Virus record (IMG/VR): IMGVR_UViG_2526164664_000020
Origin: a virus
Taxonomy: Duplodnaviria; Heunggongvirae; Uroviricota; Caudoviricetes
Reading direction: 5' to 3' (one strand)
Length of the DNA: 25,739 bases
The position numbers were made by a program. This document shows, one piece after another, positions 12,001 through 15,000 of the stretch; within the stretch, counting starts at the first letter, position 1, and each line of letters begins with the position of its first letter.

Positions 12001-15000
12001 CTCTGTGCCCCCGAAACCATCCGGGACCGTCTGGTCGCAGTACTGCGCAATGGCATACAGCGCCCATTTGTCCACGTCTGCCGCCCCCAGACGTTTTCCC
12101 ATGCCGTAGCGCGGGTGAGTCAGCATGTCCCACAGGCACCAGGCCGGGTTGTTGCTGTATGCCGGTTTCAGGCTGCCGTCCCAGATGCCGCTGTACGTGC
12201 GTTTTTCCGGGTCATAGTTTGACGGTACCTGGATGATGCGACCGCGGATATGGTAGTTCACCGTCATCTGCTGACCGCCAAACTGCTCCGCATCCACCTG
12301 CAGCCCCACAATCGCCGTGTTCGGGTAGCACTGTTTCACATCGATGATTTCGGTGTATGACGACCAGAGCGTCTTATTCTGCAGCTGGTCCGAGGTGCTG
12401 TCCGCTGTCTCCCGGACCATCCGGATGTTAAAGGGCCGCTCAGGCAGATTCTCCAGAATCACCGACGCCAGATACTGTGAGGTGGTCTTGCCGTTAATGG
12501 TGACATCCTTTTCCGTCACCCAGTTACCGTTACGCTGCAACTGAATCAGCAGTCGGACAGAAGAGGGATTACGGTCGCCCTTTGAGGTGGTCTCCAACAG
12601 TGACTGCACCCCGAAGGTGACCCGCAGGCGGTCAATGTTCGCGGACGTAATGGTGCGCGTCACCGGCTTTGCCTTCGTCACTTCCACGCCCAGTGCGGTT
12701 TCCGCCCCGGAGGACTCAAAGCCTTCAGGTGGTGTCTGCTCCTGCTCCCCGGCGCGCCAGACCGCTGTCACACCATGTATCACAGGATTACCGTCCGTGT
12801 CCGTCAGCGGGGTTTTGTTCACCAGGATACTCTGCAGCCCCTTCACCGGACCTTCAATCGGCCCTTCACCAATGGCGTCAATCACGCTCATCATCTGCGT
12901 GGATTTGAGATTGTCCTTCGCCTCACGAGGTGTGTGCGCCCTGCCGCCACCTTTACCCATAATGTTCCTCTCAATTGGTATTATTAATCGCAGTGATAGG
13001 ATATTGCACAGCTATTGCGCGATATCATCAGAACGCTGTTTGTTACCCTGTAACCAGCAAGCTCAGTCTGTTAACGGAATTAATGAGGGTTTTATGAAAT
13101 GTAAAATCATTGCTGCCATTGCCATGCTGACAGCAGCATCATGCGGATACGCAGCAGAACAGGAAGTCCCAATGAACCTTGTCAGTGCTGACGGAAAAGA
13201 AGTCAGCATTGGAAAAATAACCATTCAGGAGACCCCCTACGGTCTGCTGTTCACACCAGCCCTTCACTCTCTGTCTGAAGGCATTCATGGTTTTCATGTG
13301 CACGAAAAAGGAAATTGCGCCCCGGCACTGAAAGACGGAAAACCGGTCGCAGCATTATCGGCTGGCGGTCACTTTGACCCGAAAAACACCGGCAAACATC
13401 TTGGCCCCTGGTCTCCGGATGGACACCTGGGCGACCTCCCTGCGCTGTTCGTGACGCATGACGGAAAAGCGAACTACCCGGTCCTGGCCCCGAGACTGAA
13501 CTCATTAAAAGAGATTAAAGGGCGTTCTCTCATGCTTCATGCTGGCGGTGATAACCATCATGACCATCCGGAGCCCCTGGGCGGTGGTGGTGCGAGAATG
13601 GCCTGCGGCATCATTCAATAATCAGTCAGGTAAGGGGCGGGCCCCTTACCTTTATTCCTCAGGACGATAAATCCTTTCTCCCTGAAAAGAACGGCACATC
13701 CTCCCTCTCTGAGTTAATGTTTTTGTCGTGACATAAGAATAATTCCTTACACTCAATCTTCGTAACTCTCCCGCAGTTCCTGTCCGTGAGCACTGCGGGA
13801 TTTTTTCGCTTTTATGCCTGCCGCCCGATAACCACCACCTTCCCGTCACCGCCTTCATCACGGGTACTGATGTCCTGGGATATACGGCGGGAGCCAACCA
13901 GCATTTCACCGTAAGGCACCGGCATCGGGTTCCCCTGGGCAATCATGTTATCCAGCGAGGAAAAGTACGTGTTCTGTCTGCCGTTATCCGTGCTTTTGTA
14001 CTCCGGTACTTTAGCCTTCGGGGCCAGCATCTGAGCCACACCACCCAGAATCATGCTGGCCCCCAGAGAAAACAGCATCGTGGTGGCAGAAAAACCACCG
14101 GCTGCCAGGGCTGAACCCCATAACGCCATTGATGCCCCGGCCGTGAAGAACGACCCCACGATGGCTGCCGCCCCCAGCACAATCTGCAGTCCGCCTTTCC
14201 CTGCACCGGCCAGTCGCGGCACAATATGGATGACCGTTCCCTCACCCAGTTGTTCGTGAAGGCGGGCATACACCGCCTCCGGTGCCATGTCATAACCGGC
14301 AATACGTATCTGGTACCAGCCTTCGTTCATCTGACGGCGGAATCCCGGCATCTGCATCGACAGGGCACGGATGGCTTCCGCTGCCGTGTTCACATACAGG
14401 CTGAGGCGGCGGCCAAATCGTTGCAAATCCCCGTGAAGGCAGATGCGTGCCAGTGGCGGTGACGCCAGACAGAATGCGTTCGTCGTTGCCATTTTTCGGA
14501 ATACCTCTCCCGTTTACTCAGTTGTTCAGGCAGATGGTGAAGCAGTTCACCGTTGCCGCAGTAAATGGCGGCATGATTGGCCACCGATGCGCCAAAGCAG
14601 CACAGCAGGATATCGCCCGCCTGTGCAGAGGACAGGGGCACCCGGTAAAAGCCGGTGACCGCCATATTGTCCAGGTAAAGGTTCTGACCGTTGCGCCACC
14701 AGTCATCCTCACGCTCAAAATCCGGCATATCAATTCCCGCCAGATGGTATGCATCCCGGAACAGCGTGTAACAGTCCGTCACCCCGTGCTCAAAGCGCCG
14801 TCCTGTCAGATGTGGCACACAGCGGAATTTATGAATTTCCCCCCGGCAGACCAGCCACCAGGACAGTGCACTTTTTATCTGCAGCCGCCGGTCAGCCTCG
14901 CTCAGCCAGGGCAGCCCACCGGGATGACTGTGGACCAGTGCCACAATCTCCCCCTGCATCTCTGCCCGCAGCCAGTCTTCCGGTGCGATACGAAAATACG

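Follow-up and report, generated by a model that had tools for sequence, protein, structure and literature searches.

Layout of the I–J spacer

The window, the whole stretch of 25,739 nt that was analysed, carries the tail genes of a lambdoid prophage integrated at the mlrA/yehV site adjoining btsS. The tape-measure gene of this prophage has a 1-bp frameshift, and its portal gene is split. The gap between tail genes I and J, which lie 60 bp apart in lambda, spans exactly 12961–13811 (851 bp). It holds an intact ORF for a 175-aa periplasmic Cu,Zn superoxide dismutase (SOD) at 13094–13621 on the plus strand, antisense to the tail operon. The features of the region are listed below.

9487–12960, minus strand: J, tail tip/host-specificity, 1157 aa (Pfam FNIII-A_GpJ, Ig_J, Phage-tail_3 and Ig_GpJ_C)
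12960/12961, minus strand: start codon of J, the left border of the spacer; homology with sodC-less loci stops exactly here
12961–13705, plus strand: sodC-specific cassette of ~745 bp (sodC with its promoter region and terminator, plus 54 bp of filler), absent from sodC-less relatives
12965–12972, minus strand: Shine–Dalgarno sequence of J, GAGAGGAA on the minus strand by direct reading, contributed by the cassette's left end
12975–13002, plus strand: candidate sodC promoter element TTGGTA-N16-TGaTAGGAT (lenient hexamer scan)
12976–12984, plus strand: candidate sodC promoter element TGgTATTAT, extended −10 (lenient hexamer scan)
13085–13089, plus strand: RBS of sodC-F, GAGGG
13094–13621, plus strand: sodC-F, F1 allele (Leu112), Cu,Zn-SOD, 175 aa (Pfam Sod_Cu)
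13628–13658, plus strand: hairpin 1 (hairpin 13628–13651), sodC's own predicted intrinsic terminator, with a perfect 10-bp GC-rich stem, a 4-nt loop and a TTATTCC tail
13706–13806, plus strand: PasB/EcOnc22-family sRNA gene body, promoterless (homology); the part equivalent to the 83–85-nt RNA is ~13722–13806
13769–13811, plus strand: hairpin 2 (hairpin 13769–13800), predicted PasB-type intrinsic terminator, with a 9-bp stem (TCCCGCAGT/ACTGCGGGA) and a 14-nt loop
13812–14492, minus strand: I, tail assembly, longest ORF 226 aa (Pfam Lambda_tail_I)

Gene I ends at 13812 on the minus strand, and its start is placed at ~14393 in PGAP-style annotation of relatives. The sequence-only reading had described a complete sodC moron lying antisense between I and J, and the ORF, the Pfam matches and the coordinates agreed with it. 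Its "850-bp insert" is too large for the cassette; the last 106 bp (13706–13811) are ancestral spacer common to sodC-less phages. BLAST against three sodC-less loci (L002, L003 and L004) found no homology across 12961–13705, and the sequence at the position of the J Shine–Dalgarno differed in those loci. The sodC-less I–J spacers were 240–343 bp long (the same three loci, E2348/69 and Sakai Sp11, Sp14 and Sp15). The GC content was 39.8% in the region upstream of sodC and 52.8% in sodC, versus 57.6–59.1% in J, I and K. The cassette shows these features of a moron: it lies between two conserved genes, is absent from close relatives, has its own predicted terminator and has an atypical GC content.

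The sodC-F gene and its expression

The product matched Sod_Cu (PF00080) with 111.9 bits (cut-off 28.9, E = 3.9e-32) over profile positions 3–133 of 133, and its best PDB matches were bacterial SodCs (E ~1e-62). Ten residues (H68, H70, C75, H93, H102, H111, D114, H149, R168 and C171) were invariant when SodC-F was aligned with SodCI, SodCIII and the SodC of E. coli. They comprise the Cu/Zn ligands (Asp and six His), the two disulfide cysteines and the catalytic arginine. In this alignment, E. coli SodC was 62% identical to SodC-F, versus the published 61%. Codons 1–20 encode a signal peptide with an AASC lipobox. For the identical protein, LipoP and fractionation indicated SpI cleavage at 20/21 and, for part of the protein, SpII processing at this lipobox, and SOD activity has been published for purified SodC-F1 (PMC2569942).

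SodC-F was identical to Sakai Sp10 ECs_1989 (the sodC-F1 allele), and only 1 of 851 positions differed between the two I–J spacers. The locus is therefore the already characterised phage-borne sodC-F of Shiga-toxin-type E. coli and is not new. Compared with sodC-F1/sodC-F2 of O157:H7 (Sakai Sp10 ECs_1989; EDL933 CP-933R/CP-933V; PMC2569942), the F1 protein, position and orientation are the same, and there is essentially no difference beyond the residence of the window copy in an mlrA/btsS-site prophage with a frameshifted tape-measure gene. Sakai Sp15, Sp14 and Sp11 were considered as sodC carriers and rejected; each has a PasB-type spacer, and the carrier is Sp10. Among 5,426 complete E. coli genomes, the full spacer was found in 547, in 540 of them at ≥99% identity, and ~700 further genomes matched 13706–13811 only. 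The O145 strain RM9872 has the spacer at 100% identity.

The strict promoter scan found no sigma-70 consensus promoter for sodC; the two candidate elements listed above came from the lenient scan. The sodC promoter probably lies within 12961–13093, with a predicted transcription start at ~12990–13010. A 299-bp upstream fragment of sodC-F drives lacZ without RpoS dependence (D'Orazio et al. 2008, PMC2569942), so that the RpoS dependence proposed by the sequence-only reading is contradicted by published data. Chromosomal FLAG tags and lacZ fusions also showed sodC-F expression, and deletion of the identical gene from the O157:H7 chromosome, where it is expressed, raised killing by H2O2, which means that the gene is protective (PMC2569942). 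The silence of sodC that would have told against the sequence-only reading is thus not what has been published.

The same reading had placed this gene among the morons known from EHEC and Salmonella, and Sakai Sp10, Fels-1 and Gifsy-2 provide such examples. Fels-1 sodCIII of Salmonella (STM0924) likewise occupies the I–J slot in antisense orientation, with a plus-strand terminator abutting the I stop codon. It differs in that SodCIII is 60% identical, the sodC-to-I gap is 53 bp without a PasB-like element, and a late-strand hairpin is kept beside J. Gifsy-2 sodCI also encodes a phage-borne, antisense, virulence-associated dimeric SodC, whereas its slot lies between an M/lom-like gene and L, and its protein is 59% identical. 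Reportedly, sodCI is PhoPQ-regulated (Golubeva & Slauch 2006). In contrast to sodCI, the window contains no convincing PhoP box; the candidates upstream of sodC were 3-mismatch matches overlapping the RBS, equal to the chance-level background elsewhere in the window, and were rejected. D'Orazio 2008 described regulation and stability of SodC-F as parallel to sodCI (PMC2569942). Like other lambdoid morons (Juhala/Hendrix 2000; lambda lom, bor), sodC-F has been added between conserved late genes, differs from them in GC content and is expressed from the prophage, and it has a candidate promoter and a predicted terminator. Unlike morons of the lom/bor type, it is antisense to the surrounding operon and appears to have been acquired by partial spacer replacement, not by simple insertion.

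The element beside gene I and the polarity of the hairpins

The 13706–13806 segment was 98% identical to the copies of L004 and phage JLK-2012, 94% to that of ST131, 80% to PasB of EPEC E2348/69 (93 nt aligned) and 78% to that of Sakai Sp15. The window copy is the L004/JLK-2012 sequence variant; its body is intact and differs from these promoter-bearing copies at 2 of 101 nt. PasB of E2348/69 lies at 1466343–1466261 on the minus strand, in the I–J spacer, with 5 nt separating it from the end of I, and its published probe matches the hairpin (coordinates and probe from Table S6 of Pearl Mizrahi et al. 2021, PMC8550237). The window element fits this position: it lies in the I–J spacer, antisense to the tail operon, and ends a few nucleotides short of the stop codon of I. 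PasB-type elements without sodC occupy the I–J spacer in E2348/69, Sakai Sp11/14/15, ST131, phage JLK-2012 and others, and hairpin 2 is conserved in the sodC-less loci. On this homology, the second "terminator" is best read as the leftover body of a PasB-family sRNA gene, which is the sole new detail at this locus.

In the sodC-less spacer, a strong promoter (TTCACA-N16-AATAAT, 10/12) stands directly upstream of the sRNA, and the AATAAT/TATAAT form was present in 4/4 aligned sodC-less copies. Neither the strict scan nor the alignment found this PasB-type sigma-70 promoter in the window, where its position reads CACATCCTCCC. Homology of the window to the sodC-less copies begins at 13705/6, just after the ancestral −10. 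Because this junction falls between the −10 hexamer and the sRNA transcription start, 13706–13811 still comprises the body of the sRNA gene and a strong terminator, and the promoter is gone. The window copy has probably lost independent PasB expression. It resembles PasB (EPEC E2348/69; PMC8550237; Zhu et al. 2026 preprint) and EcOnc22/23/24 (PMC4104026) in spacer, strand, distance from I and terminator, but it lacks the TTCACA-N16-TATAAT promoter and is ~80% identical to the E2348/69 RNA. The canonical sRNA 3′ end, a 9-bp stem with U6 (terminator and Hfq-binding 3′ module), is kept.

For promoter-bearing homologues, PasB/EcOnc22 are established as real Hfq-bound RNAs (PMC8550237, PMC4104026). 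EcOnc22/23/24 of EHEC Sakai are ~85 nt long and destabilised in Δhfq (Tree et al. 2014, PMC4104026), and the ECs2161...ECs2162 spacer ranks in the top 100 intergenic regions for Hfq binding. After the offset from NC_002695.1 to NC_002695.2 was applied, EcOnc22/23/24 coincided with the PasB-type elements of Sakai Sp15/14/11. The offset was +136 to ~+140 at the two reference loci, AsxR and AgvB1 (1.27 and 1.94 Mb). Its use at 2.17–2.90 Mb is an extrapolation, on which the apparent equivalence of EcOnc22–24 with PasB rests. The Sakai Sp10 sodC spacer was not in the reported Hfq-CRAC orphan peaks or top-100 intergenic regions, an absence that concerns those lists only. Neither the window nor three sodC-less loci gave a gathering-level Rfam match, and Rfam has no model for the PasB family. 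A hit to STnc400 over the sodC stop codon and hairpin 1 was sub-threshold (23 bits versus 80) and was discarded; in Salmonella, STnc400 is flanked by STM3844 and STM3845 and has no connection with sodC. The anti-sRNAs AgvB/AsxR were rejected as the conserved element, as they map downstream of PR′, outside the tail region, and have different sequences.

The stem energy of hairpin 1 was approximately −17 to −18 kcal/mol, and its U-tract is interrupted (UUAUUCC). The stem of hairpin 2 is followed by TTTTTTCGCTTTT, which as RNA is U6 and then CGCUUUU; this end adjoins the I stop codon, and the U-run at 13801–13806 lies 5 nt from that codon (13812). Both stems can fold on either strand, whereas the T-run is present on the plus strand only. 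The T-tail scores on the plus and minus strands were 2.67 versus 0.34 for hairpin 1 and 2.47 versus 0.20 for hairpin 2, and the minus-strand tails read GACTGATTATT and AGAGTTACGAAG, respectively. A U-tract on both strands, as in a bidirectional intrinsic terminator, was sought at the two hairpins, and the minus strand had none. Terminator-like sites in 12500–14300 numbered 7, versus 1.8 ± 1.5 in shuffles. The d'Aubenton-Carafa d-score was calculated with modern energy parameters and was uncalibrated; the experimentally supported PasB terminator scored negative, and from the terminator scoring only the T-tail asymmetry was used. Terminator prediction on both strands thus agreed with the sequence-only reading that the T-runs of both hairpins downstream of sodC are on the plus strand only, and neither hairpin was bidirectional.

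The interpretation given to this asymmetry has to be corrected. Hairpin 2, which had been assigned to sodC, belongs to an sRNA gene of the PasB/EcOnc22 family as its terminator, as judged from its presence in spacers without sodC. A one-way design that lets late transcripts reach J is also unnecessary. Lambda, Fels-1 and sodC-less E. coli prophages (L004) all have a terminator-like hairpin between I and J on the strand of the late transcripts. In lambdoid phages, late transcripts start at PR′ and are antiterminated by Q, and hairpin polarity is therefore irrelevant to them. The plus-strand-only T-runs are the ordinary polarity of two plus-strand genes, not a purpose-built insulator.

Origin of the locus and its meaning

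We consider it highly probable that the locus combines the known sodC-F moron with a promoterless PasB remnant, both with ordinary strand polarity. The anatomy, homologies, junctions, strand asymmetry and distribution behind this model come from our analysis; expression, RpoS independence, enzyme properties and Hfq binding of PasB/EcOnc22 are taken from the literature. In the model, sodC-F would be an autonomous lysogenic-conversion cassette, transcribed antisense to a tail operon that is silent in the lysogen, from a promoter inside 12961–13093 that is sigma-S-independent according to the literature. The product would be exported as a dimeric, partly lipid-anchored Cu,Zn-SOD that clears periplasmic and exogenous superoxide. 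Transcripts of sodC would stop at their own hairpin (13628–13651). The cassette (12961–13705) would have entered an occupied junction and replaced the J-proximal half of an older spacer, which carried a PasB/EcOnc22-family Hfq-dependent sRNA gene beside I, antisense to the tail genes. The remnant would be at most a back-up stop for sodC read-through before antisense entry into I, and late transcripts, being Q-antiterminated, would pass the hairpins regardless. The direction of the exchange, a gain of sodC and not the origin of PasB-type spacers through its loss, is suggested by diversity only: the sodC spacer is near-clonal, and PasB spacers are diverse. No target-site duplications, flanking direct repeats or inverted repeats were found at the cassette borders. 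In a scan of species-representative genomes for a donor, the nearest SodCs were those of Serratia, Leminorella and Pseudomonas (62–69% identity), none of them a close relative.

Other explanations were weighed against this model. Hairpins 1 and 2 could both be tandem terminators of sodC, selected as a one-way insulator that shields I–K–L and lets late transcripts reach J. Both do lie downstream of sodC on the same strand with T-runs on the plus strand only, and either would functionally stop plus-strand RNA polymerase. However, 13706–13811 occurs at 94–98% identity, with its own promoter, in many prophages without sodC; because of this, hairpin 2 would be the terminator of another gene and older than sodC. 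J is also expressed despite the late-strand I–J hairpins of lambda, Fels-1 and sodC-less relatives, and polarity does not matter under Q antitermination, as is established. We therefore regard a selected insulator as quite improbable. That sodC is a silent or decaying passenger of a defective prophage is hardly credible. The tape-measure frameshift (1 bp) and the split portal gene indicate that the phage may be defective, and the strict scan called no consensus sigma-70 promoter, but the ORF is intact with all catalytic residues conserved, the spacer is ≥99% conserved in ~540 genomes of several serotypes, and the identical gene is expressed in O157:H7, where its deletion increases H2O2 killing (PMC2569942).

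A promoter swap is unlikely. In this reading, the PasB body was captured as the 3′ UTR of sodC, and leaky termination at hairpin 1 would give, whether or not RNase E processes the transcript, an Hfq-binding sRNA resembling PasB together with SodC-F. The interrupted U-tract after hairpin 1 makes some read-through into the PasB body plausible, so that the remnant could still be expressed; the body is intact relative to the promoter-bearing L004/JLK-2012 copies, the canonical hairpin and U6 end is kept, and the junction lies right at the ancestral +1. Against these points, the stem of hairpin 1 is strong (a perfect 10 bp), the near-identity may merely reflect a recent event, and the promoter-bearing copies are in the reported Hfq-CRAC orphan peaks and top-100 regions, whereas the Sakai Sp10 sodC spacer is not.

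The sodC-F moron itself is established EHEC/STEC biology, and its confirmation adds little. For lambdoid phages, the model of a sodC-F moron beside a promoterless PasB remnant means that the I–J spacer is a modular cargo slot that has been used repeatedly, for PasB-family sRNAs, for sodC or for both, with recombination junctions that coincide with gene and promoter borders. Surveys that BLAST the RNA body would count ~550 promoterless sodC-linked copies as PasB sRNA genes. There is a small chance that the cassette has placed an Hfq-dependent prophage sRNA under the sodC promoter, with hairpin 1 read-through, with or without processing, giving a PasB-like 3′-UTR sRNA each time SodC-F is made. 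If the sodC promoter does drive the remnant, the locus would be a neat example of sRNA promoter capture in nature, and an oxidative-defence moron would be coupled to post-transcriptional regulation in ~10% of sequenced E. coli.

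The I–J spacer and its sodC gene

The window is the right arm of a lambdoid prophage whose head is HK97-type and whose tail is lambda-type. The prophage adjoins btsS/btsR at the mlrA (yehV) site, and its late genes are all on the - strand. The spacer between I and J is 851 bp, compared with a 60-bp gap in lambda, and the sequence-only reading had placed its borders exactly.

Features of the I–J region
9487-12960, - strand: J
12961-13811: I–J spacer, 851 bp
12975-13002, + strand: candidate sodC promoter, TTGGTA-N16-TGaTAGGAT
12976-12984, + strand: candidate sodC promoter, extended -10 TGgTATTAT
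13094-13621, + strand: sodC ORF, 175-aa product
13628-13651, + strand: hairpin 1, perfect 10-bp stem, 4-nt loop, about -17 to -18 kcal/mol, then TTATTCC
13769-13800, + strand: hairpin 2, 9-bp stem, 14-nt loop, then T6, then CGCTTTT
13812, - strand: end of I

The sodC product covered the full Pfam Sod_Cu profile (111.9 bits, E=3.9e-32) and matched bacterial SodC crystal structures (E about 1e-62). H68, H70, H93, H102, H111, D114, H149, C75, C171, and R168 were invariant in an alignment with Gifsy-2 SodCI, Fels-1 SodCIII, and E. coli SodC, and the N-terminal signal peptide contained an AASC lipobox. The protein was identical to ECs_1989 of Sakai Sp10, whose spacer differed at one position. Codon 112 is CTG (Leu), as in allele sodC-F1 (D'Orazio et al. 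2008, PMC2569942). The gene is the already characterized sodC-F. The full spacer was present in 547 of 5,426 complete E. coli genomes (540 at ≥99% identity), including O157:H7, O145, O111, O45, and others, and in two deposited Stx2a phages.

SodC-F is a highly stable dimer with partial lipid anchoring; its FLAG-tagged chromosomal version accumulated in both log and stationary phase and also under anaerobic conditions, and sodC-F deletion increased killing by H2O2 (PMC2569942). The gene is therefore not silent. The RpoS dependence that the sequence-only reading had proposed to check is answered by a 299-bp fragment 5' of sodC-F: lacZ expression from it did not require RpoS (data not shown in the source; PMC2569942). 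No promoter-like site was called within 12500-14300. sodC would be transcribed in the lysogen from a putative promoter within 12961-13093 and would halt at hairpin 1; any read-through would reach the PasB terminator 5 nt short of I.

Two genes elsewhere in the prophage read as split. The tape-measure gene (16171-19412, -) consisted of two overlapping ORFs (16171-18474 and 18435-19412). Its 3242 bp aligned to an intact 3243-bp gene of strain CAU16175 with one gap. The gene carries a frameshift of 1 bp, and the prophage may therefore have a defective tail. The portal gene (22395-24817, -) also consisted of two ORFs (22395-23456 and 23453-24817). Among relatives, the annotation gives two "portal" CDSs in Stx2_EH2201 and Sakai Sp10 and a "frameshifted" one in CAU16175; the split could be a true frameshift, or this phage group could share a programmed or annotation feature here. 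Cargo genes at the end beside btsS (about 4186-7100, +) were named by position from the annotation of CAU16175 (97% identical overall).

Cargo genes beside btsS
4186-4434, + strand: DinI-like gene
4639-5847, + strand: hypothetical gene, 402 aa
about 6349-7044, + strand: TccP2-like effector gene

The TccP2-like gene was shorter than its CAU16175 counterpart, perhaps because the number of proline-rich repeats varies.

A PasB-type sRNA body ending in hairpin 2

Megablast with the spacer gave two match classes, full-length and 13706-13811 only. The latter comprised about 700 genomes and >100 Stx1/Stx2c phages at 94–97% identity. The sodC-less I–J spacers of phage JLK-2012, an ST131 chromosome, and strain 02E060 were 240-343 bp; window homology with these loci ended exactly at the J start codon and restarted at 13705/6. 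Directly 5' of the common 106 bp, they carry a strong sigma-70 promoter, TTCACA-N16-AATAAT (10/12 matches), indicating a small + strand transcription unit that ends in hairpin 2. Hairpin 2 is the terminator of another gene, not of sodC as had been proposed. The "850-bp insert" of the sequence-only reading stands as an 851-bp spacer, of which only about 745 bp (12961-13705) is sodC-specific.

The 13706-13811 segment is a described sRNA, PasB. In EPEC E2348/69, PasB is an 83-nt, northern-validated, Hfq-stabilized RNA (PMC8550237) at NC_011601 1466343-1466261 (-) (PMC8550237 Table S6). It sits inside the I–J spacer, 5 nt from the end of I (2762-2844 of the E2348/69 locus, L006), and the published probe (Table S6) matches the hairpin. 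Identity of the window element was 80% with E2348/69 PasB, rising to 98% with its counterparts in JLK-2012 and 02E060. Rfam has no family for the PasB-type element. The 343-bp ST131 spacer (L003) has an extra + strand terminator-like hairpin at 2330-2400 (AAACCCCGGTATCAGCAGATACCGGGGTTTTCTTTC), upstream of the PasB promoter, which suggests that a further small + strand unit occupies this slot.

EcOnc22/23/24 of EHEC Sakai are about 85 nt and destabilized in Δhfq (Tree 2014, PMC4104026). They are located in the I–J spacers of Sp15, Sp14, and Sp11. After correction for the NC_002695.1-to-.2 offset (+136 to about +140, measured with AsxR and AgvB1), their peaks coincided with the PasB homologue (Sp15 locus L007, 3343-3427; also Sp14 and Sp11 loci, L008 and L009). 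The ECs2161...ECs2162 spacer is among the top-100 Hfq-bound intergenic regions. EcOnc22/23/24 and PasB thus appear to be one sRNA family at one I–J position, an equivalence we infer because the offset was extrapolated to 2.2-2.9 Mb. In the retrieved version of Table S6 (PMC8550237), the PasB row gives no EHEC homologue, unlike those of PasA and PasD. The main text of a 2026 preprint on Pas distribution does not mention sodC or superoxide.

Hairpin polarity and transcription

Both stems can form on either strand. The T-runs are on the + strand only, as the sequence-only reading had noticed, and T-tail scores (+ vs -) were 2.67 vs 0.34 for hairpin 1 and 2.47 vs 0.20 for hairpin 2. The observation was confirmed, and the interpretation given with it was partly supported. 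Terminator-like I–J hairpins with a T-run on the late-transcript strand were found in lambda (AAACCGCCtgcgGGCGGTTTTGTCATTT, L096 1265-1291), in Fels-1 (L013 4367-4395), and in sodC-less E. coli spacers (10-bp stem, then TGTTTTTGTG; 02E060 locus L004 2411-2434, -). Lambdoid PR' late transcription is Q-antiterminated, so J is expressed in these prophages, and late-transcript passage does not depend on hairpin polarity. The one-directionality is true as a description and explains little; hairpins 1 and 2 are plain 3' ends of + strand genes. The late-strand hairpins have GC-rich stems, and the sodC cassette removed the one in the window; their role is perhaps to stop non-antiterminated transcripts, or in RNA processing or stability.

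The U-tract of hairpin 1 is interrupted and the PasB body 3' of it is intact, so a sodC–PasB co-transcript or a 3'-UTR-derived sRNA could arise. We consider this improbable. The one line of evidence against it is weak: published lists of Hfq orphan peaks and top-100 intergenic regions include promoter-bearing PasB homologues but lack the Sakai sodC spacer (ECs1987-1990). Separately, 19 nt in sodC codons 30-36 (13183-13201, CAGTGCTGACGGAAAAGAA) were 84% (16/19) complementary to 13777-13795 (+), where the PasB-type hairpin has its loop and 3' arm. A rough calculation gives an expectation of about 0.04 ungapped pairs of this kind for a region as large as this one; the match may be chance, since the PasB sequence is older than its association with sodC.

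Origin of the locus

The antisense I–J cargo slot is already known from Fels-1. Its sodCIII lies in the same slot and orientation, a + strand terminator borders the stop codon of I, and the sodCIII product is 60% identical to that of the window. Gifsy-2 sodCI is likewise antisense, but its slot is between an M/lom-like gene and L.

The cassette had a GC content of 40-53%, compared with 58-59% in its neighbours; its left end provides the Shine-Dalgarno for J, and no flanking repeats were found around it. The 238-bp PasB-type spacer of 02E060 (L004 2370-2607) is a mosaic: different E. coli genomes matched only 1-151, 77-151, 77-233, or 132-238, so borders between modules concentrate around the PasB -10/+1, which is also where the cassette joins.

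Unrelated sequence (…CACATCCTCCC|TCTCTGAGTTAAT…) stands in place of the PasB -35 and -10 in the window, and the junction falls between the ancestral -10 and +1. The window carries a promoterless PasB remnant, the one new detail at this locus. PasB-type spacers are diverse, with at least three body variants (78-94% identity) and mosaic breakpoints around the promoter/+1, whereas the sodC spacer is nearly clonal. This contrast suggests that a JLK-2012-type spacer had its J-proximal half replaced by sodC, probably by recombination at module borders.
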